Both the position numbers and the translations under genes were made by a program. DNA of 64,000 bases from Hyphomicrobiaceae bacterium (GTDB lineage: Bacteria > Pseudomonadota > Alphaproteobacteria > Rhizobiales > Hyphomicrobiaceae), in assembly GCA_041288195.1 (NCBI GenBank), contig JBGGME010000045.1, forward strand, positions 4,247-68,246, given 5' to 3'. Every line of letters begins with the position of its first letter. The first letter of the stretch is position 1. The notes below the pieces were generated by a model. The model had not been told where the DNA came from. It ran no database searches and saw nothing but the letters and a program-made list of their open reading frames with translations. Below, piece after piece: positions 6,348 to 52,500 of the stretch.

Positions 6348-6599
6348 ATGTCGGCAGGCACAGGCAAGTTCGGCAGCTGCTGCGAGATCATGAAGGACGT
6401 GCTGGAGAGCGACGAGTTCGAGCCGCTGATCGCCGAGGACGACGACGGCATCCTGTACATGTCGATCGGCGTCGTCGACGCCGAGAAGGAGGACGAGCCC
6501 AACATGGTCGACCACCCCGTGTTCTTCTGCCCCTTCTGCGGCACCAAGGTGCAGTCGCCCGAGGAGGTCGACGCCAAGACCGGCGGGCAGACCAACTAG
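6348..6599 (+). CDS. Small acidic Cys-containing hypothetical protein (83 aa) between atpD and atpC
   Basis: ATG 6348 follows AAGGGAG, 20 nt after the atpD stop. Third-codon positions are almost all G/C. Contains GSCCE and FFCPFCG motifs. No family recognised. Confidence 0.6.
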   Translation: MSAGTGKFGSCCEIMKDVLESDEFEPLIAEDDDGILYMSIGVVDAEKEDEPNMVDHPVFFCPFCGTKVQSPEEVDAKTGGQTN

Positions 6600-6738
6600 A
6601 ATGGCCAACTGAAGCTTCCCCATAGGCAACCCGGCGCGAGCGGGGGCATCGGCCAGGATGGCTGCAGCCGATGGTCCCCTCGCCCGAAGACGAGCCCGCA
6701 GCCCAATCCCGCAACGCCAGCAAGAGTACTCCTAGAGC

Positions 6739-7134
6739 ATGGCAGGCACGTTCAAGTTCGAGCTGGTGACGCCCGAGCGCATGGCGCTCTCGCAGGACGC
6801 CACGCAGGTGCTGGTTCCGGGGGTGGAGGGCGAGTTCACGGTGCTGCCCGGCCATGCGCCGGTCATCTCGGCGCTGCGCCCCGGCGTGATCGAGGTCACC
6901 CTCGCCGAGAGCGGCGAGACGGAGCGCATCTTCGTCAAGGGCGGCTTTGCCGAGGTGGACGCGGACCGCGTCACGGTGCTGGCCGAGCGCGCGATGGCGG
7001 TCGACCAGATGAGCGCGGATGTAGTCACCGCCGAGCTGGAGAGGGCCGAGGCCGAACTCGCCGCTGCCGCCGACGACGCCTCCCGCCTTGCCGCGGCTTC
7101 CGCGGTGGAGCGGCTGCGCGCTATGGGGCGTTGA
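6739..7134 (+). CDS. atpC: F1 ATP synthase epsilon subunit
   Basis: FELVTPER...VPGVEGEFTVLPGHAP...GGFAEV pattern typical of epsilon; 131 aa. Confidence 0.95.
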   Translation: MAGTFKFELVTPERMALSQDATQVLVPGVEGEFTVLPGHAPVISALRPGVIEVTLAESGETERIFVKGGFAEVDADRVTVLAERAMAVDQMSADVVTAELERAEAELAAAADDASRLAAASAVERLRAMGR

Positions 7135-7154
7135 GCTGCGCGTGGTGCTTTGCG

Positions 7155-8826
7155 GGGCAAAATTCCTTATGTGTCCACGTAGGCTTCTCTGCGCCGACTG
7201 GTGACCGGGAGGCGGCGGTAGAACGCGAAGGGCGAAGCCTCCACGGTAAATATCCACATGCGGTAGATGCCTTTGATGACTACGAGCACCATCGCGGCGT
7301 GAAACCAGAACAATAGTTGGCCGCTCAGGATGCCATCTGCGATCGGGTCCAGATTTTCCAGCAAGCCTGGAACGCGCACCAGCACGTAGAGTATCAGTGG
7401 GACGTTTACCGCAGCCTGCGACAACAGGGTGATGACGATGCGGGCGGCCGACGCATTCTGCAGACCATAGATCACGTTGAGTGCAATCTGCATCGACGCA
7501 AACGCCAGCACTATGCAGCCGGTCCAATAGATCAGCCGGCGAAACGCCCACCAGATGCGCTTGCGGAACGTGTCCTGGGCGATGAATTCCCGGTCGCGCT
7601 CGTTCACGCGCCTAGCCAGTCCCTCGGCCAGCCAAGCCCGCTGCTCTCGCGGGCAAAGCCAGAAAAGCCAGTTGAAGATCCTATCCATATGGGTCGTGTA
7701 CACGATGCCGCCGAGGAACGTGATGAGCGCCATAAGCGAGATCGCGAACAGTGTTTGCGGCCATACGGGCAAGCCGAATGCCTGGCCCATGTGGTGCAGC
7801 ACGACGCGCAGCCCCTGCCATCCCGTCATCTCGGCGAGTGGGAAAATGGCGGTGAGCAGCCAGATCAGCCCCACCAGGATCGTGATCGCCCAGACAACGA
7901 CGGCGATCGAGGCGGAGGCGAGAACTGCGAACGCTTGGCCAACTGTAGCTTTGAGCGCTCGCCACAGCTCACGCAACCCGAGGATGCCCGAGATGCGCAG
8001 AGTGCTGCCGGGAAAGACGGGCGGCTCGCGCAGCGCTTCGCTCTCGTAGAGGAGTTCGGGATTGGTGAGGCTCGGGAGATATGTGGAGGTCGGGAGCCGG
8101 AAGTCGGCGGCGAAGAGTCCCCGCCTGTATTGGACCACGATGCGGCCGGTGACTCGAAGGTATGGCACCTGGCGCATCTTCAGCTTCGTGACCGCGAAAC
8201 ATCGGCGGTCGCGTTCCTCGAGGTAGTGCCATACGGCACCCTGCGCCAGGCACACGTCGGTGCAGCCTGGCGGCGGTTGTCCATCGGGGCCACCGCTCAA
8301 TGCGCCGAGCTGGGAAAACCGCAAATCGTCGGCGGTCTGCGGCACCCCGAAATGCGCGGGTCCCTCGTTGAGATTGGTGAGGATCGGGTCGTATTGCGGC
8401 GTAAACGCGTAGTAGAAATTCAGATAGTCGAGGACAATGCCTCTGAGTTCTTCCTCGTCGGTCGGCAGCGAAAGGGAGCACTCGCGATTTGCCCGATCGA
8501 CGCTGCCCGTCTCGTTGGCCATTGGGACGAGACGCAGGTGGTTACTGGGCTGACGCTGCTGCGCAACGAAATAGATGCGGTCGGGACGCGCTGCGCCGCT
8601 GTGATCCAGGCGCTCAAGATAGACGAGCCAGGCGGTGCGATAAAAGCGTAGCGGTGTGCCCCGCAGGACCCATTTGTCTGCCGATCTTGCATCTTTGAGG
8701 TCGGACTTCCTCGCGACTTGGCCCCTGATTTGACGCTCAAGCCCATCAGACAACTCCACAAACTCGCACGCCACGGCGTCCCCCGATTGTGTGCACAAAT
8801 AGCATATCATAGGAGGGCAAAATTCC
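7155..8826. mobile_element. Single-gene insertion cassette bounded by an exact 12-bp direct repeat GGGCAAAATTCC
   Basis: GGGCAAAATTCC occurs at 7155..7166 (abutting the stop codon at 7167) and at 8815..8826 (4 nt upstream of ATG 8810). The interior looks lower in G+C than the flanks. No recombinase inside. Confidence 0.45.
7167..8810 (-). CDS. Hypothetical protein: ~290-aa soluble N-terminal domain plus ~5-6 TM C-terminal domain
   Basis: 547-aa ORF with coherent codon usage. N-terminus has CYLCTQSGDAVAC. C-terminal half has long hydrophobic stretches (AVLASASIAVVVWAITILVGLIWLL, LFAISLMALITFLGGIV, etc.). No family recognised. No obvious SD. Confidence 0.75.
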   Translation of the reverse strand: MICYLCTQSGDAVACEFVELSDGLERQIRGQVARKSDLKDARSADKWVLRGTPLRFYRTAWLVYLERLDHSGAARPDRIYFVAQQRQPSNHLRLVPMANETGSVDRANRECSLSLPTDEEELRGIVLDYLNFYYAFTPQYDPILTNLNEGPAHFGVPQTADDLRFSQLGALSGGPDGQPPPGCTDVCLAQGAVWHYLEERDRRCFAVTKLKMRQVPYLRVTGRIVVQYRRGLFAADFRLPTSTYLPSLTNPELLYESEALREPPVFPGSTLRISGILGLRELWRALKATVGQAFAVLASASIAVVVWAITILVGLIWLLTAIFPLAEMTGWQGLRVVLHHMGQAFGLPVWPQTLFAISLMALITFLGGIVYTTHMDRIFNWLFWLCPREQRAWLAEGLARRVNERDREFIAQDTFRKRIWWAFRRLIYWTGCIVLAFASMQIALNVIYGLQNASAARIVITLLSQAAVNVPLILYVLVRVPGLLENLDPIADGILSGQLLFWFHAAMVLVVIKGIYRMWIFTVEASPFAFYRRLPVTSRRREAYVDT

Positions 8827-8924
8827 CGCCGTCAACCCAGCTACCCGCACTACGCTCGGGGCGCCCCTGCGCTCGGGAGATGTTGGAGCTGCTCAAAGAA
8901 GTGAGGACGGCACGCCCGGCGCGC

Positions 8925-9425
8925 CTACCCCACATGCGCCGCGAACGCGGCAACCACGTCGGCGTAGACCTTGCGCTTGAAGGGCACGATCAGCCTGGAC
9001 AACTCGGCGGCGGGGGCCCAGCGCCAGGCGTCGAACTCGGCCTTGTGGCCGCGCCGCGGGGCGATGTCGATCTCTGCGTCGTCACCCTCGAAGCGCATGG
9101 CGAACCACTTCTGCCGCTGCCCGCGGTAGCGCCCCTTGAGCGCGATGCCCATGAGCTCGTCGGGCAGGTCGTAGGAGAACCAGCCGGGCGCCTCGGCCAG
9201 CAGCTTGACGCTCGTGACCCCGGTCTCCTCCTCGAGCTCGCGCAGCGCCGCAGCCGCCGCGGACTCGCCGGCTGTGATGCCGCCCTGCGGCATCTGCCAG
9301 ATATGCGCAAAGCCGTCGCCGGCCCACTTCGGTCGGCGGCGCCCGACCCACACCAGCCCGCGCCGGTTGATCAGCATGATCCCGACGCAGGGGCGGTAGG
9401 GCAGATCGAGCTGGGTGAGGGCCAT
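8925..9425 (-). CDS. rppH: Nudix hydrolase, RNA pyrophosphohydrolase-like (copy 1)
   Basis: Nudix box [33 protein letters not shown]-terminus, GQRQKWF motif typical of RppH. Confidence 0.85.
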
Positions 9426-9595
9426 GTTGCTGCGCGACCGATCGTCTTCTAGGCGCTATTGGACAATAGTTCAGTGATTTGCCCGCTTTGTCACGCCAAA
9501 CCGTGTCCGTTTGGTTGCCACGGTCGCGCGCGGCCTTGGCGAGAGCAAGGCGGGCAGCAGGCGCGAAGCCCAGACAAAACGGACAGGCCCGCTCG

Positions 9596-10111
9596 TCAGG
9601 CTTCGGGGCGCGCCAGCGGCGCGAAATCGCGCACCAGCTCCTCGTAGACGCCGCGCTTGAACGGCACGATCAAGCCGACCAGCTCGCTCATCTTCGCCCA
9701 GCGCCAGCTGTCGAACTCGGGCGCATGGCCGGGCCGCTCGAGGGCGATCTCCGCCTCCTCGCCCCTGAAGCGGGCCGCGAACCACTTCTGCCTCTGCCCG
9801 CGATAGCGCCCGCCCCAGGCCTTGGGCCGCAGCGCCTCGGGGAGGTCGTAGGTGTACCAGCGCGGGCTTTCGGCGACGATCGTCACCGACCGGATGCCGG
9901 TCTCCTCGTCGAGCTCGCGCAGCGCGGCCTGGCGAGGATCCTCGCGCTCGTCGATGCCGCCCTGCGGCATCTGCCACCAGGCGCCGGGACCTTCGGGCTC
10001 GCTCGGCGCATCGGGGCGCCGGCCGATCCACACCAGCCCCTCGCGGTTCAGCACCATGATGCCCACGCAGGGCCGATAGGCCGATGCATCGCTCGCCATT
10101 GGCGCCTCCAA
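9596..10111 (-). CDS. rppH: Nudix hydrolase, RNA pyrophosphohydrolase-like (copy 2)
   Basis: Nudix box GGIDEREDPRQAALRELDEETGI. Colinear with copy 1 ([21 protein letters not shown]). Start may be the ATG at 10099. Confidence 0.85.
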   Translation of the reverse strand: MEAPMASDASAYRPCVGIMVLNREGLVWIGRRPDAPSEPEGPGAWWQMPQGGIDEREDPRQAALRELDEETGIRSVTIVAESPRWYTYDLPEALRPKAWGGRYRGQRQKWFAARFRGEEAEIALERPGHAPEFDSWRWAKMSELVGLIVPFKRGVYEELVRDFAPLARPEA

Positions 10112-10169: not shown

Positions 10170-11525
10170 CTACTTCTGCTTCGGCTGCCCGCCCTGCTCG
10201 GGCGTGGGCGTGGGTGCCGCCTCGGCCTTCTGCGGCAGGGCCGGCAGCGGCTCGCCGCGCAACATCTTGAGCGCGTACTGCAGCTGCGTGTCCTTCTCGG
10301 CCTCCTTCGGCACGTAGTTGGAGGAGCCCGAGCCTTCCTTGCCGCTGTCGCTCTTGAGATGGCCGCGCAGGCCGGACTCGCTCGGCATCCGGTTGTTGCG
10401 CGACTGCAGCTCCGGCGGCAGCTCCTGCTCGACGACGACGTCGGGATCGATGCCCTTGGCCTGGATCGAGCGCCCGGCGGGCGTGTAGTAGCGCGCCGTG
10501 GTCAGTCGGATCGCGCCGTTGGCGCCGAGCGGGATGATGGTCTGCACCGAGCCCTTGCCGAACGAGCGCGTGCCGATCACGGTCGCGCGCTTGTGGTCCT
10601 GAAGGGCGCCCGCCACGATCTCGGAAGCCGACGCCGAGCCGCCATTGATCAGCACGATGACCGGCTTGCCGTCGCTGATGTCGCCGGGGCGGGCGTTGGC
10701 GCGCTGCGTCTCCTCGAGGCCGCGACCCTTGGTGAGCACGATGGCGCCCTTGTCGAGGAAGTCGTCGGACACCGCGATCGCCTGGTCGAGCAGGCCGCCC
10801 GGGTTGCCTCTGAGATCGATCACGTAGCCCTTGAGATTCTTGACGCTCTTCTTGAGGCTTTCGACCGACTTCACGAGGTTGGCGTGGGTCTGCTCGTTGA
10901 AGGTGGAGACCTTGACGTAGATCACGTCGTTCTCGAGGCGTGCCTTCACCGCGTTGATGCGGATCACGTCGCGCACGATCTTCACGTCGAACGGGTCATC
11001 CCGCCCCTTGCGCACGATCGTGAGCGTGATCGGCGTATTGACGGGCCCGCGCATCTTCTCGACCGCCTGCTCGAGCGTGAGGCCGACGATCTGCTCGTTG
11101 TCGAGGTGGGTGATCAGGTCGTTGGTCTGCAATCCCGCCTTGGCCGCCGGCGTGTCGTCGATGGGCGAGACCACCTTGACCACGCCGTTCTCCATCGTCA
11201 CCTCGATGCCGAGGCCGCCGAACTCGCCGCGCGTCTGCACCTGCATGTCGCGGAAGTTCTTGGGGTTGAGGTAGGCCGAGTGCGGATCGAGGGCGGCCAG
11301 CATGCCGTTGATGGCCGAGTCGATCAGGGTCGCATCGTCGGGCTTGTCGACGTAGTCGCTGCGTACGCGCTCGAGCACGTCGCCGAACAGGTCGAGCTGC
11401 TTGTAGATCTCGGAGTTGTTCGAGGTGGCCGAGTAGGTCCTCGTGACATTCAGGAGGGTCGTGGCACCGGCGAGGCACGCCAGCATCACGAAAGTCCAGA
11501 ATGCATAGTCCGATTTGCGCGTCAT
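10170..11525 (-). CDS. ctpA: Carboxy-terminal processing (S41) peptidase
   Basis: PDZ-like segment (GGLGIEV..VVKVVSPIDDTPAAKAGL) and S41 core (DLRGNPGGLL, GSASASEI). ATGA start/stop overlap with the upstream M23 gene at 11522..11525. Confidence 0.9.
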   Translation of the reverse strand: MTRKSDYAFWTFVMLACLAGATTLLNVTRTYSATSNNSEIYKQLDLFGDVLERVRSDYVDKPDDATLIDSAINGMLAALDPHSAYLNPKNFRDMQVQTRGEFGGLGIEVTMENGVVKVVSPIDDTPAAKAGLQTNDLITHLDNEQIVGLTLEQAVEKMRGPVNTPITLTIVRKGRDDPFDVKIVRDVIRINAVKARLENDVIYVKVSTFNEQTHANLVKSVESLKKSVKNLKGYVIDLRGNPGGLLDQAIAVSDDFLDKGAIVLTKGRGLEETQRANARPGDISDGKPVIVLINGGSASASEIVAGALQDHKRATVIGTRSFGKGSVQTIIPLGANGAIRLTTARYYTPAGRSIQAKGIDPDVVVEQELPPELQSRNNRMPSESGLRGHLKSDSGKEGSGSSNYVPKEAEKDTQLQYALKMLRGEPLPALPQKAEAAPTPTPEQGGQPKQK

Positions 11526-42970: not shown

Positions 42971-44182
42971 CTAGCGATGTGCGGCCTCGGTCCTGGCCTT
43001 CGCCGGGACCATGACTTCTGCGCGCCTGAGGACGAGGCCCAGCGCGGCGATCAGCACGATCGGCGTGAGCGAGACGAGGGTCATCTCGGCGATCGAGCGC
43101 GCCGCCAGCGGCAGCACCCATAGCGCTGTCAGCATGGAGACCTCCCAGGGCGCGAAGCCCTGGCGCAGCCCGTGCGCCGCGAGGAAGGCAATGGCGGGCG
43201 CCAGCACGACCAAGTCGTAGTCGAGGAAGTAGGGCGTGGCGATCAGGCTGGCCAGGATGAGGCCCGCGGCCTTGAGCTCGAAGACCGCGCTCGAGCGCCA
43301 CAGCATCACGATCGCCACGGCGCAGCCGAGCGCAACCAGCATCTGCGCCGCATTCGCGACGGCCATCGGCACGCCGATGAGCCGCAGCCCGGCATAGACG
43401 CTCTGGATCTTGTGGAAGCCCGGCGCGCCCTCCATCACCACGCGGCGCGCCATGCCGAGCGAATGCCAGAATGCGGTGAACACGTCCGGCCCGAAGGCAA
43501 TCGATGTCAGCCCGGCGACGGCGAGCACGGTGACGGCGGCAGCCGCGATCGTGCGCCAGCGCCCGGTCGCAACCAGCGCCAACGGGAGCAGCAGCCCGAA
43601 CTGCGGCTTGTAGGCGAGGCAGCCCAAGAGCACGCCGGCGAGCAGCGGCCGGCGGTCGAGCACGAGCAGCGCGCCGCCCAGCAGCGCCGCCGTGATGAAC
43701 CCATTGTGGCCGTGCGTGACGTTGACGAACACGGCCGGGAAGGCGAGCGCCGGCAGCCACGCCTCGGGCCGCCCGGCAATGCGCGTGACGACGGCGAGAT
43801 AGGGGAGAAGCGTCACGGCCTGGTAGAGCGCGAGCGCGGCGAGAAAGGGGAGCGTGGCGAGCGCCGCCGCCAGCAGCAGGAACATCGGCGGGTAGTGCCA
43901 GCCGAAATAGGGGATGTCGGCGCGGCCCGATACTTCTTTCTGCACGGCGTGGTGGGCGTCGAAGTCGTAGGCTGCGCCCGCCTTGCCATCGAGCGCCAGC
44001 CGCCCCGCCGAATAGACGTTGGCGAAGTCGGTGCCGAGCGGGCGCCCGGCGCGGTCGACGAGGCCGTCGGAGGTCGCGAGCAGCGCGACGATGGCGACCG
44101 CATAGGCCGCGAGCAGCAGGATCGAATAGACGCACAGCCGCTCGCGCGTCACGAAGCTTCCCGATCTCAGCGCCTGCAGCAT
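42971..44182 (-). CDS. Integral membrane glycosyltransferase-like protein (DUF2029/GT87-like)
   Basis: Polytopic membrane protein with an N-terminal loop (GTDFANVYSAGRL...YFGWHYPP) resembling the DUF2029 family. Confidence 0.6.
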   Translation of the reverse strand: MLQALRSGSFVTRERLCVYSILLLAAYAVAIVALLATSDGLVDRAGRPLGTDFANVYSAGRLALDGKAGAAYDFDAHHAVQKEVSGRADIPYFGWHYPPMFLLLAAALATLPFLAALALYQAVTLLPYLAVVTRIAGRPEAWLPALAFPAVFVNVTHGHNGFITAALLGGALLVLDRRPLLAGVLLGCLAYKPQFGLLLPLALVATGRWRTIAAAAVTVLAVAGLTSIAFGPDVFTAFWHSLGMARRVVMEGAPGFHKIQSVYAGLRLIGVPMAVANAAQMLVALGCAVAIVMLWRSSAVFELKAAGLILASLIATPYFLDYDLVVLAPAIAFLAAHGLRQGFAPWEVSMLTALWVLPLAARSIAEMTLVSLTPIVLIAALGLVLRRAEVMVPAKARTEAAHR

Positions 44183-44228
44183 AGCGCAGAGGCTAGGCGC
44201 CCTCGCCTACGGAATGGTTAAGGCGCCT

Positions 44229-44337
44229 GTCATTCCCGCCAAGCGCAGCGCAGAGCGGGAATCCAGCCTCAGACACCACAATCGTCATTGATCGCCGCTG
44301 GATTCCCGCTGACGCGCTGCGCGCTCGCGGGAATGAC
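44229..44337. repeat. Family A-type nested palindrome (variant GTCATTCCCGC...GCGGGAATGAC)
   Basis: gtcattcccgc/gcgggaatgac termini and gcgggaatccag/ctggattcccgc inner arms. Confidence 0.6.
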
Positions 44338-44345
44338 AACGCGCC

Positions 44346-44984
44346 CTACTGGATGAACGGGTTGTTCTGCCGCTCCTCGCCGAGCGTGCTCATGGGGCCG
44401 TGGCCGCAGATGAACACGAGGTCGTCGCCGAGGGGGAGCAGCTTGGTCTTGATGGCCGAGATCAGCGCGTCGTGGTCGCCGTAGGGAAAGTCGGTGCGGC
44501 CGATCGAGCCCTGGAACAGCACGTCGCCGACCAGCGCAAAGCGCTGCGCGTCGTTGACCAGCACCACCGAGCCCGGCGAATGGCCCGGGCAGTGCAGGAT
44601 CTTGAACGTGTTGCCGGCCACCGTCACGGTGTCGCCCTCATCGAGCCAGCGGTCCGGCGTGACATTGCGCATGCCGGGCACCCCCATGCTCAGCCCCTGA
44701 GCGGCGAGGCCATCGAGCAGGAACTTGTCGGCCTGGTGCGGGCCCTCGATGGGGATGCCGCCGAGCTTCTCCTTGAGCTCGGCCGCGCCGCCGGCGTGAT
44801 CGAGATGGCCATGGGTGAGGATGATCTTCTCCAGCGTCATGCCGGTCTGCTTGATGCCGGCCTCGATGCGGGCAAGGTCGCCGCCGGGATCGACCACGGC
44901 GCCCACCTTGCTCGCCTCGTCCCACAGCAGCGTGCAGTTCTGCTGGAACGGCGTGACGGGAACGATGGCGGCTTTGAGCGGCAT
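44346..44984 (-). CDS. MBL-fold hydrolase (glyoxalase II-like)
   Basis: THGHLDHAGG motif, 212 aa. Internal ATG 44984 of ORF 44346..45179. Confidence 0.8.
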   Translation of the reverse strand: MPLKAAIVPVTPFQQNCTLLWDEASKVGAVVDPGGDLARIEAGIKQTGMTLEKIILTHGHLDHAGGAAELKEKLGGIPIEGPHQADKFLLDGLAAQGLSMGVPGMRNVTPDRWLDEGDTVTVAGNTFKILHCPGHSPGSVVLVNDAQRFALVGDVLFQGSIGRTDFPYGDHDALISAIKTKLLPLGDDLVFICGHGPMSTLGEERQNNPFIQ

Positions 44985-47829: not shown

Positions 47830-48519
47830 GTGACCGACCGAGCGACCATCCTCTCGCGCCGCCACCTGCTGCAACTGACCGCGGGCGCGGCCGCACTCGG
47901 CCTTGCCGCGTCCTGGGGCCAGGGATCGCCCGCACACGCACAGCGCAAGAAGGCAGGCCCCACCGAGGTGTCGGCCGAGGAGCTGTTGAAGCCGGGCCCG
48001 CTGCCCGACCTCGTGCTCGGCAAGGACGACGCACCCATCACTGTGGTCGAGTACGCCTCCATGACCTGCGGCCACTGCGCCAACTTCCACAACACCGTGT
48101 TCCCGGTACTCAAGGAAAAGTACATCGACACCGGCAAGGTGCGCTTCATCATGCGCGAGTTCCCGCTCGACAACCTGGCGGCGGGCGCCTCGATGCTGGC
48201 GCGCTGCGCGGGCGGCGACAAGACCTTCCCGCTGATCGGCGCGCTGTTCCACACCCAGGAGACCTGGGCCTTCGTGCGCGGCGACCCGCGCCCTGAGCTC
48301 TTCAAGGTGGCCAAGCAGGCGGGCTTCACCCAGGAGAGCTTCGACAAGTGCCTGGCCGACCAGAAGCTTCTCGATGACATTTCCGCCGTGCGCACGCGCG
48401 GCACCGAGCAGTTCGGCGTGAACTCGACGCCGACCTTCTTCATCAACGGCAAGAAGATGACGAGCGGCCCGTCGGTCGAGGAGTTCGACAAGGCGTTCGG
48501 CGCCATCCTGAAGAGCTAG
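47830..48519 (+). CDS. DsbA-family thiol:disulfide oxidoreductase with Tat-like signal
   Basis: SRRHLLQLTAGAAALGLAAS signal, CGHC active site, STPTFFINGK. Confidence 0.8.
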   Translation: MTDRATILSRRHLLQLTAGAAALGLAASWGQGSPAHAQRKKAGPTEVSAEELLKPGPLPDLVLGKDDAPITVVEYASMTCGHCANFHNTVFPVLKEKYIDTGKVRFIMREFPLDNLAAGASMLARCAGGDKTFPLIGALFHTQETWAFVRGDPRPELFKVAKQAGFTQESFDKCLADQKLLDDISAVRTRGTEQFGVNSTPTFFINGKKMTSGPSVEEFDKAFGAILKS

Positions 48520-49501: not shown

Positions 49502-52500
49502 ATGCACATCAACCGGCTCCGGCTCCTTGGCTTCAAGTCGTTCGTCGAGCCGACCGAGCTCGTGGTCGAGCGGGGCCTGACGGGCGTGGTCGGGCCCAAC
49601 GGCTGCGGCAAGTCGAACCTGCTCGAGGCGCTGCGCTGGGTGATGGGCGAGACCTCGCACAAGAGCATGCGCGCGGCTGCCATGGACGACGTGATCTTCT
49701 CCGGCACGGCGATCAGGCCCGCCCGCAACATGGCGGAAGTGACGATCTTCATCGACAACTCCGCGCGCCAGGCGCCCTCCGAGTTCAATGGCAACGACAT
49801 GCTGGAGGTGACGCGCCGCATCGAGCGCGAGGCGGGCTCGGCCTACCGCATCAACGGCCGCGAGGTGCGCGCCCGCGACGTGCGCATCCTGTTCGAGGAC
49901 GCAGCCACCGGCGCGCGCTCGCCGGCGCTGGTGCGCCAGGGGCAGATCGGCGAGCTGGTCAATGCCAAGCCCGAGCAGCGCCGCCGCATCCTCGAGGATG
50001 CTGCCGGCATCGCCGGCCTGCACAGCCGCCGCCACGAGGCCGAGCTGCGCCTCAGGGCCGCCGAGGGCAACCTCTCCCGCATCAGCGACATCCTGGGCCA
50101 GCTCTCCTCGCAGATCGAAAGCCTGAAGCGGCAGGCCCGCGCGGCGCGGCGGTACAAGGAGATATCGGCCGAGATCCGCAAGCTCGACGCCATAGTCTTC
50201 CACCTGCGCTGGCAGGAGGCCCAGTCGCAGGTCGACAGCGAGGAGGCCGAGCTTGCCGCCGCGCTGGAGAAGGTGGGCCGCGCTACCGAGGCCGAGGCCA
50301 AGGCGATCAGGGCCGAGGCGGAGGCTGCCGACAGGCTGCCGCCCTTGCGCGAGGCCGAGGCCGCCAAGGGCGCCGTCCTCGCCCGCTTCCGCATCGAGCA
50401 GGAGAACCTCGAGCGCGAGGCCAAGCGCACGGCCGAGCGCCAGCGCGAGCTCGCCGCCCGCGCGGAGCAGCTTGCCCGCGACAAGGCCCGCGAGCTGGCG
50501 CTGATAGCAGAGGCCAAGGAGACGATCGCCCGCCTCGACGCCGAGACGGCCTCGCTCGCCAACACCGCCCGCCTCGCCGCCGACTTCGAGCAGAAGGCGC
50601 TTGCCGCCCACGATGAGGCCGAGAGCACCCTCAAGAGTGCCGAAGCGCGCCTCACCTCGGTCACGACCGCCGTTGCCGAGGCGCGGGCCCGCCGTCAGAG
50701 CCTCGAGACGCAGAAGAACGAGCGGCGCGAGCAGATCGCCAAGCTCGAGCGCCAACTCACCGCCCTCGACGTGCAGACCCGCGAGATCGTGGGCCGCGCG
50801 CCCGACGCCTCCAAGCTCAAGGCCGCCGCCGAGCTCGGCCAGCGCCTGATGGCCGAGATCGCCAACATCGAGACCGAGACGCTCGCCGCCGAGGAGGCCG
50901 TGCAGTCGGCTGCCGCCGATTCCCGCTCCAAGAGTGACGCCGCCGCGCAGGCGAGCCTCGCCGCAGGCCAGCTCACGACCGAGGTGGAGACGCTCGCCAA
51001 GCTGCTCACCCCGGCAGGCGATGCCGCCCTGCCGCCGGTGCTCGACCAGATCAAGGTGGAGGCGGGCTACGAGATGGCGCTCGCCGCCGCGCTCGGCGAC
51101 GACCTCGATGCGCCGCTCTCGGGCGAGGCGCCGCGGCACTGGCGCTTGAATGCCGCCCCGGACAAGGACCCGGCGCTGCCTGCCGACGTCGAGCCGCTCG
51201 GCCCCCACGTCGAGGGCCCGCCGGAGCTGACCCGACGCCTGGCCCAGATCGGTGTCGTCGCCGCCGCGGACGGCGCCCGGCTGCAGCGCGAGCTGAAGAC
51301 CGGCCAGCGTCTCGTCTCCGTCGAAGGCCACCTGTGGCGCTGGGACGGCTTCATCGCCGCAGCCCAAGTATCCACGGCTGCCGCCACGCGGCTTGCCGAG
51401 CGCAGCCGGCTCGGCGCGCTCGCCCGTGAGGAGGAGGCCACACGTGCCGCCGCCGAGGCGGCGCGCAACGAATCAGATGCCGCTGCCGAGCTGCTCGCCG
51501 CCACCCAGTCCGAGGAGAAGCGTCTGCGGCAGCTGTGGCGCGAGGCGCAGGGCAAGATGGCCCAGACCCGCGACGTGCTGACCGCCATGGAGCGGCAGGC
51601 GCGCGAGACCGAGGCCAAGATCGCCGCCGTGTCGGACGCGAGGGGCCGCGCCGAGGAGGCGCTGGTGGAGTCGCACGAGCTGCTCGGCCAGACCGAGGCT
51701 GCGCTGGCAGCGCTCTCCGGCACGGATGCGCTGGAGGCGGACTTGGCGGCCACCCAGGCGCAGACCGCCTCGCTGCGCTCCCGCGTCACCGAGTCCCGCA
51801 CCGAGCTCATCACGCTCGAGCGCGAGCATCGTGCCCGCACCGAGCGCAGCGCCGCCATCGCTCTCGAGCACGAGCGCTGGAAGACGCGCTCGGCCGGCGC
51901 CGAGCAGCAGATCGCGACCCTGGCGGAGCGCAGCGGCGAGGCCGAGACCGAGATCGCCAAGCTCGCCGGGCTGCCGGCCCAGATCGAGGAGCAGCGCCAG
52001 AAGCTCATGAGCGAGCTTGCCGCCGCCGAGCTGAGCCGCCAAGCGGCCGCCGACGAGCTTGCCGCCGCCGACACCGCCCAGCGCCAGGCAGGCCAGGAGC
52101 TGCGCGCCGCCCAGGCCGCCGTCGCCGACGAGCGCGAGGCCCGCGCCCGCACCGAGGCCAGGCTCGAGAATGCGCGGGCACGCCGGTCCGAGGAGGCGCG
52201 CCGCATCCGCGAGCAGCTGAGCTGTGCACCCGATGCCTGCCTCGGGCTTGCCGGCCTCGCCGAGCGCGCCGAGCTGCCCTCCCTCGAAAGCGCGGACAGC
52301 CAGCTCACCAAGCTCAAGGCCGACCGCGAGCGTCTGGGCGGCGTCAACCTGCAGGCCGACGATGATCTCACCGGCCTCAGCCAGCAGTTCGAAGGCCTCG
52401 ACAAGGAGAAGAGCGACGTCGAGGCCGCGATCGCCAAGCTGCGCGCGGGCATCGGCCAGATCAACGGCGAGGGCCGCACCCGCCTGCAGGCAGCCTTCGA

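Follow-up and report, generated by a model that had tools for sequence, protein, structure and literature searches.

A probable resident accessory gene for an inner-membrane protein, rather than a recent mobile insertion, at the atpC/rppH junction of a Hyphomicrobiaceae bacterium

Exact 12-bp direct repeats around a segment of lower G+C content are reminiscent of insertion sequence (IS) elements, miniature inverted-repeat transposable elements (MITEs) and integrative cassettes. The single-gene abortive-infection and defence proteins represented in PADLOC-DB join a soluble N-terminal domain to a multi-helix membrane domain, and they show an accessory distribution, an atypical composition and rapid divergence. 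Orphan accessory genes are restricted to one clade, have no detectable homologues or domains outside their own family and carry the annotation 'hypothetical protein'; their G+C content at third codon positions (GC3) and codon adaptation are lower than those of their core neighbours, their proteins evolve fast and they are frequently lost. At the level of the fold, tandem cystatin/latexin-like modules, or the PepSY-like modules of the C-terminal part of YpeB, are built as successive units of a helix on a four-stranded antiparallel sheet. These traits, the last of them as a prediction, recur in a 1.65-kb segment, with a single gene that we call geneX, between atpC and rppH in a 64,000-nucleotide stretch of Hyphomicrobiaceae DNA (contig JBGGME010000045.1, positions 4,247 to 68,246; hereafter the window). 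A preliminary description had taken this segment for a horizontally inserted, self-contained single-gene module resembling single-protein abortive-infection or defence genes. We conclude that it is probably no recent mobile insertion but an accessory gene of restricted taxonomic distribution, resident at this site, that codes for an inner-membrane protein.

The position of geneX in other genomes carries this conclusion. Of the other non-redundant loci, 13 retain one or both flanks (L001, L002, L004, L005, L006, L007, L009, L011, L012, L014, L020, L022 and L083), and in all 13 the gene was found at the atpC/rppH junction; its products there span 28-99% identity to the window protein. Wherever both flanks are present, geneX is convergent with atpC and lies downstream of the NUDIX genes of the rppH side; in L004 the rppH side is rearranged and the linkage to atpC is retained. 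The stop codons of geneX and atpC overlap or nearly abut. A recent horizontal insertion does not agree with occupancy of one and the same junction in all of these loci, down to 28% identity. The family is small, with 16-17 clusters among 5.8 billion proteins and, in an exhaustive profile search, 65 representatives (50% identity) among 1.84 billion proteins. It is present in 4 of 185,579 species genomes, all of them alphaproteobacterial or Hyphomicrobiaceae metagenome-assembled genomes (MAGs), and a second database search with a deeper, 39-sequence profile found no member beyond the family. The product is deposited as 'hypothetical protein' (HEY5827322.1 / MEZ0300976.1), and the 64-kb window matches proteins of Hyphomicrobiaceae MAGs. 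geneX is probably a resident chromosomal gene of a clade of uncultured Hyphomicrobiaceae-like soil alphaproteobacteria.

Sites that lack geneX were found by a scan for atpC relatives, followed by tblastn. At two of these empty sites (L027 and L046), atpC is 75-80% and the NUDIX gene proximal to geneX is 84% identical to the window, and the two stop codons are about 25 bp apart; at the third (L019), the proximal NUDIX gene is 78% identical. The three lineages are no more distant from the window (78-84%) than carriers are. In a tree of the proximal NUDIX gene they nest among the geneX carriers, so that loss of geneX is the parsimonious reading. Two NUDIX genes without geneX are also found in the outgroups L030, L031, L033, L036 and L041, and a single NUDIX gene in L018 and L024. 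Some close relatives have geneX and others do not, which makes it accessory; limited to a single clade and with a coding sequence under selection, it has the attributes of a taxonomically restricted accessory gene. We infer that geneX entered the atpC/rppH site once, before the clade diversified, and that the empty sites nested in the clade are deletions.

The rate at which geneX evolves sets it apart from its neighbours. Between loci, its product is 26-73% identical, as compared with 88-95% for atpD, 83-90% for ctpA and 69-83% for the NUDIX genes; the last range is for loci with both NUDIX paralogues, and the most distant locus, L011, is near 60%. The number of synonymous substitutions per site (dS) is about 2, and thus saturated, in geneX, against 0.3-0.5 in the neighbours. 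The ratio of nonsynonymous to synonymous rates (dN/dS) is 0.08-0.14, indicating that geneX is a functional protein-coding gene under purifying selection. A hypervariable sensor domain was considered and rejected, since the two domains of the protein diverge equally (mean pairwise identity of 34.5% for the N-terminal and 32.0% for the transmembrane (TM) domain). In bootstrapped neighbour-joining (NJ) trees, the neighbouring genes group the window with L001 and L009 (100%) and L006 with L007 (98%). geneX groups the window with L001 and L006 (100%) and L002 with L007 (97%), and L009 is a deep outlier. This conflict suggests that alleles have been exchanged at a fixed locus, that rates are strongly uneven, or both. 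Lineages probably traded divergent alleles by recombining through their flanks, which are conserved.

As to composition, the interior of the segment is AT-richer than its flanks, as the preliminary description had noted: its G+C content is 0.61 and its GC3 0.76, with a GC3 of 0.90-0.94 in atpC, atpD, rppH and ctpA. The relation is the same in 5 of 5 loci tested, with a GC3 of 0.65-0.89 in geneX against 0.84-0.97 in most flanking genes; the exception is a frameshift-split argG fragment flanking geneX in L004 (0.74). Because the GC3 of geneX is low in all lineages tested, the anomaly is not a mark of recent import. Rather, low GC3 is an equilibrium property of geneX and not the signature of a fresh import.

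The gene, its control region and the two copies of the repeat are located as follows:
7167..8774, minus strand: coding sequence of geneX, 535 aa, with GTG start at 8774 and TAA stop at 7169-7167
8779..8784, minus strand: Shine-Dalgarno-like GGGGGA, 4 nt upstream of GTG 8774
8790..8806, no strand assigned: 17-bp palindrome TATGC-N7-GCACA, abutting the -10 box; the family consensus is TRTGC-N7-GCAYA
8806..8835, minus strand: sigma-70-like promoter, TTGACG (8835-8830), 18-nt spacer and TATGAT (8811-8806)
7155..7166, no strand assigned: left copy of the 12-mer, within the 32-nt spacer between the convergent stops of atpC and geneX
8815..8826, no strand assigned: right copy of the 12-mer, in the 18-nt spacer of the geneX promoter, flanked by its -35 and -10 boxes

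The longest-open-reading-frame rule gives an open reading frame (ORF) at 7167..8810 on the minus strand, coding for 547 aa. All homologues start, however, at a Met aligned to residue 13 of this ORF, which corresponds to GTG 8774, and both the JGI and the NCBI gene calls for an identical or 99%-identical protein are of 535 aa. Because the homologue starts and the public calls agree, we take GTG 8774 as the true start of geneX. A GGGGGAG-like run lies upstream of the start in most relatives. The promoter matches the consensus at 10 of 12 positions and is the sole sigma-70-like hit in 6600-9600; relatives keep the TTGAC box and the -10 box in front of their copies of the gene. The ATG at 8810-8808 forms the centre of the -10 hexamer TATGAT, and the N-terminal 'CxxC...C cluster' read from it is therefore untranslated leader or promoter DNA. 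The preliminary description was thus right about a self-contained single-gene unit, now seen to have its own promoter, putative operator, Shine-Dalgarno sequence and coding sequence, and about the existence of the 547-aa ORF. It was mistaken in seeing an exact bracket around the gene, since the minus-strand start is GTG 8774 and the -35 box lies outside the right copy, and in finding no Shine-Dalgarno sequence, which precedes the real start.

Of 11 loci examined, 7 have the palindrome in front of geneX, namely the window, L001 (7959-7975), L002 (7963-7979), L004 (7962-7978), L005 (388-404), L007 (5995-6011) and L012 (7967-7983); the geneX allele of L012 is only 28% identical. Across 82 loci compared, 10 of the 11 matches to the palindrome are geneX promoters, and the remaining one, in L004, is a probable chance hit. 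A search for a regulon found no further copies elsewhere in the 64-kb window. Its position and conservation suggest that the palindrome is a putative repressor operator and that expression may be conditional.

The 12-mer GGGCAAAATTCC occurs on the plus strand at 7155-7166 and 8815-8826, and the left copy abuts the geneX stop codon (7167-7169), both as described previously. These are the sole two copies in the 64-kb window when up to one mismatch is allowed. On inspection of the sequence, the left copy shares bases with TTTGC-GGG-GCAAA, a weak hairpin of 5 bp. We rejected the left copy as part of a good intrinsic terminator, as the hairpin is of just 5 bp and the terminator scan made no call. 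The right copy lies wholly within the promoter spacer with the -35 box outside, and therefore the repeat does not seem to delimit the ancestral geneX unit. The window contains 128 distinct exact direct repeats of at least 12 nt spaced 300-3000 nt apart (234 12-mer pairs), whereas second-order Markov simulations lead one to expect about 65 such pairs. When spacers of 32 and 150 nt were shuffled with matched composition, a shared 12-mer arose in about 2e-4 of the shuffles. By extrapolation to the 55-60 or so genes of a window, in either orientation, the chance of such a gene-flanking repeat would be roughly 1-3% per window. The repeat is thus unusual for a single window, yet expected over a scan of many windows.

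Among relatives, the 12-mer was found only in L014 and L083, which are of the same species (97-99% nucleotide identity); L083 was reached via a protein fragment, P0029, of 82% identity, and proved to be an indel-rich assembly of that species, not an intermediate. At the other geneX-carrying relative loci, no flanking repeat of any kind was found. The repeat is private to one species. An empty site with a single GGGCAAAATTCC had been anticipated, and none was seen: L019, L027 and L046 contain neither the 12-mer nor any 9-mer core of it, although this is a weak test. A search for terminal inverted repeats beside the 12-mer copies found none. The 12-mer most likely arose by chance or through microhomology, rather than as a target-site duplication or att site.

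Two domains are distinguished in the protein from AlphaFold2 models and hydropathy:
7980..8774, minus strand: N-terminal soluble domain, aa 1-265
7170..7979, minus strand: C-terminal membrane domain, aa 266-535, with five hydrophobic segments

An AlphaFold2 model from 39 sequences has a predicted local distance difference test score (pLDDT) of 84 and a predicted template-modelling score (pTM) of 0.70. The N-terminal domain is predicted to form two tandem modules, each a helix plus a four-stranded sheet. Over the first 260 aa the Kyte-Doolittle maximum is 0.41, with no hydrophobic segment and no signal peptide, consistent with a cytoplasmic location. The hydrophobic segments span residues 276-318, 339-361, 414-438, 444-472 and 481-511, the fourth being interrupted by P459, an invariant residue of the motif QAxxNxP. 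Lys plus Arg residues number 4 before the first TM helix, 1, 12, 0 and 1 in loops 1-4, and 5 in the C-terminal tail. This distribution suggests that both termini are inside, with four TM helices and a re-entrant hairpin. Universally conserved residues are mainly aromatic, Gly or Pro, and few polar residues are near-invariant. A CxxxC pair (C171/C175) was rejected as a catalytic or metal site because it is kept in just 18-19 of 25 full-length members. With so few invariant polar residues and a Cys pair that is not universal, a non-enzymatic, sensor/pore-type protein is favoured over an enzyme.

Neither half of the protein is recognisable, as had been said, and this holds across a range of searches. 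With hmmscan the window protein matched no family in Pfam-A or NCBIfam, and thus no housekeeping membrane-protein family there; 16 family members gave only scattered hits in Pfam/NCBIfam, with E values of at least 0.07, and the weakest profile hits, also scanned by hmmscan, had no family match. PADLOC-DB v2 (5027 models) yielded no family for the window protein at E <=10, PHROGs no match by hmmscan, and a profile search of PDB sequences nothing at E <=10. Two AlphaFold2 models were compared with PDB and BFVD by Foldseek, and the best E values, 0.046 and 0.023, are both insignificant. The best resemblances, likewise insignificant, are to multicystatin, latexin, fetuin-B, monellin and YpeB (E >=0.046, the best at probability 0.33), with template-modelling scores of at most 0.22 for long alignments and about 0.4 over 55 residues. 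A search of the literature turned up nothing relevant to the locus. The earlier account of the protein therefore stands for a soluble N-terminal and a hydrophobic C-terminal half and for their unfamiliarity, and not for the Cys cluster, which is untranslated.

Tentatively, we picture geneX as encoding a repressor-controlled inner-membrane protein whose small, pore-like membrane domain is under the control of a double alpha+beta domain in the cytoplasm. The gene would be transcribed from its own sigma-70 promoter, and a putative repressor acting on the palindrome TRTGC-N7-GCAYA would shut this promoter, making expression conditional and low. The product would then insert in the inner membrane, with its 265-aa double alpha+beta N-terminal domain remaining in the cytoplasm and a membrane domain of four TM helices plus a probable re-entrant hairpin with the conserved QAxxNxP. 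The cytoplasmic domain may sense a cue or partner and so control how the membrane domain passes ions or small solutes, or perturbs the membrane.

Several observations weigh against these interpretations. The sensor/pore mechanism is drawn only from architecture, topology rules and motif conservation. A simple topology with five TM helices would place the basic C-terminal tail outside the cell, and the re-entrant model was chosen to satisfy the positive-inside rule. The palindrome is missing in L006, L009, L011 and L022, and hence regulation through it is not universal. Part of the excess dS in geneX may reflect a weaker constraint on codon usage and GC3 and not a separate history, and the conflicting NJ trees contain few taxa and a long branch to L009. 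A priori, the 12-mer has only moderate odds of having arisen by chance, at about 2e-4 for this gene and, by extrapolation, about 1-3% per window. Finally, the absence of the 12-mer from the empty sites is hard to interpret, as these relatives are at 75-84% protein identity and the spacers are not conserved.

The genes that flank geneX are the following:
6739..7134, plus strand: atpC, F1 epsilon subunit (NF001851, score 134.5 bits, cutoff 131)
8925..9425, minus strand: rppH-type NUDIX paralogue proximal to geneX, lying upstream of it in the same orientation
9596..10111, minus strand: distal rppH-type NUDIX gene, orthologous to the one rppH gene of outgroups

atpC is the last gene of the F1 ATP-synthase run and is convergent with geneX. 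The two tandem NUDIX paralogues are 59% identical, both score above the NF001938 cutoff, and a terminator-like hairpin follows the proximal gene at 8917-8905. Runs of 16-24 nt are identical in the DNA of the two (for example at 9276 and 9953). Their duplication is clade-specific: the outgroups L018 and L024 have a single copy, and its orthologue here is the distal gene. On every long contig the neighbours are atpHAGD-x-C, two rppH genes, ctpA, an M23 peptidase gene and ETF genes. Rfam and tRNA scans of the window were empty. Between atpD and atpC lies an ORF for an acidic protein of 83 aa (6348-6599, plus strand) with a C-terminal CPFCG motif; neither Pfam nor NCBIfam has a match for it, and it is found at 41-92% identity in nearly all compared relatives (L015-L052). 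In ctpA, 45 differences between the window and L014 are clustered at 10446-10752, with about 27 over the other 3.3 kb, a pattern resembling a recombination tract between strains. L001 and L083 (ENA ERZ250395xx assemblies) have atpC, atpG and geneX split by single-base indels, most likely long-read assembly error and not pseudogenisation, and truncated geneX fragments such as P0029 should not be taken as decay. Elsewhere in the window, positions 1-1500 and 44100-44900 have a G+C content of about 0.60, as low as that of geneX or lower. A dense cluster of direct repeats of 12-15 nt at 50200-52400 suggests a repetitive or coiled-coil coding region, and a 27-nt exact repeat at 48119 and 48920, 801 nt apart, suggests paralogous segments.

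Of the other ways to account for the locus, a recent, horizontally inserted mobile single-gene cassette, with the 12-bp repeats as target-site duplication or att scars, would explain the exact 12-mer in both flanking spacers (with its chance probability of about 2e-4 for this gene), the low G+C and GC3 of the interior and the presence/absence among relatives. Yet the segment contains no gene for a transposase, integrase or other recombinase, geneX being its sole ORF with homologues, and it is without terminal inverted repeats; on the recombinase the preliminary description had been correct. The right copy sits in a promoter spacer with a conserved -35 box outside, and the repeat is missing in every carrier of another species as well as in the empty sites. 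geneX occupies the same junction across lineages with saturated synonymous sites, over which a neutral insertion scar could not survive, and an IMG/VR scan and tblastn against plasmids found no viral or plasmid copy of it. It had been held that relatives carrying the gene here with native composition and no repeat would count against an insertion, and such relatives exist, except that their composition is also atypical. We consider this explanation largely refuted, with scarcely any probability left to it: the mobile defence cassette with target-site duplication, as first posed, does not hold. It was also argued that a chance 12-mer is unlikely, which is true for this gene and loses force among 128 comparable repeats in the window. 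Alternatively, the 12-mer could be meaningful in this one species as a microhomology scar of allele replacement, as a paired protein-binding site or as a substrate for the precise deletion of geneX. The low chance probability for this pair of spacers, the apparent exchange or loss of geneX alleles in the clade and the presence of both copies in three independent assemblies of the species would fit. However, these assemblies are 97-99% identical, making retention uninformative, no other lineage has a flanking repeat, the window holds comparable repeats in number, and the word is not otherwise repeated in it; we give this possibility a small chance.

A different view would have geneX as a chromosomally fixed, hypervariable conflict gene, active in abortive infection, phage exclusion or the like, whose divergence is driven by an arms race and allele exchange. 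Its cytoplasmic domain would sense infection and its membrane domain would kill or depolarise the cell. The sensor-plus-membrane architecture, a divergence far above that of the neighbours with deep allelic types, the incongruence with the flanks, the presence/absence polymorphism, the persistently atypical GC3 and a tight-looking putative operator control all agree with this. On the other hand, PADLOC and PHROGs have no match, the neighbours are housekeeping genes, and no defence island or adjoining defence or mobile gene was found at the loci with readable flanks. Defence genes normally spread across phyla, but this family keeps to one clade and one locus; both domains diverge equally, leaving no hypervariable sensor, and the overall dN/dS is 0.08-0.14. 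The direct assignment to defence genes, which also lacks any phage or plasmid copy, is thus not sustained, and we regard a conflict function as unlikely, if still worth keeping in mind. Somewhat less likely still is the bolder form, in which geneX would found an undescribed single-protein conflict class with a new two-lobed cytoplasmic sensor fold and a new pore domain of four TM helices plus a re-entrant segment. It would persist as an operator-silenced, hypervariable, recombining and sometimes deleted series of alleles at one site, and not by the spread of a mobile element. geneX could also work together with its neighbours, for instance as a membrane-bound regulator of the F1Fo ATP synthase, as a factor in its assembly, or alongside the duplicated rppH. 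It always adjoins atpC, with stop codons overlapping or near-abutting, and L004 keeps this linkage despite its rearranged rppH side. But geneX is convergent with atpC, is not co-transcribed with it and has its own promoter; it is extremely divergent while atpD is 88-95% identical; and the overlap of convergent gene ends suffices to explain why breakpoints avoid the atpC side. geneX occurs without the proximal NUDIX gene in L004 and L006, and the proximal NUDIX gene without geneX in L019, L027 and L030-L036. A link to ATP synthase or RppH is very unlikely, since geneX is missing from close relatives in which the atp and rppH genes are intact.

We therefore retain the resident accessory gene as the probable reading. 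There is a methodological lesson in this locus: a short exact repeat combined with a maximal ORF can mimic an insertion when what passes for the start codon belongs to the -10 box from which the gene is itself transcribed. The locus still offers an orphan that is clearly delimited and open to experiment, with natural knock-outs in sister lineages. For now it is one among many hypothetical proteins of uncultured soil alphaproteobacteria. Were a function found, geneX would add a new membrane-protein family, and it might show how allele exchange between conserved core genes maintains fast-evolving accessory genes.

How, then, does geneX compare with the systems it calls to mind? Unlike IS elements, MITEs and integrative cassettes, the segment has no transposase, integrase, terminal inverted repeats or single-copy empty site, and its repeat does not seem to match the boundary of the conserved unit and is missing in all carriers of other species. 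Unlike the PADLOC-DB defence proteins, geneX has no profile match, no defence island, no mobile element and no spread beyond one clade and one locus. Unlike the cystatin/latexin-like or YpeB modules, its N-terminal domain is predicted to be cytoplasmic and is fused to a membrane domain, and it has no sequence similarity and only insignificant structural matches to them. With orphan accessory genes, geneX shares the traits listed for them at the outset. Unlike them, geneX is large (535 aa), has two domains, is confidently folded in the predicted model (pLDDT 84) and is under clear purifying selection; it is old enough to have reached 26-28% identity at a fixed locus, and it has kept a conserved promoter and a putative operator.

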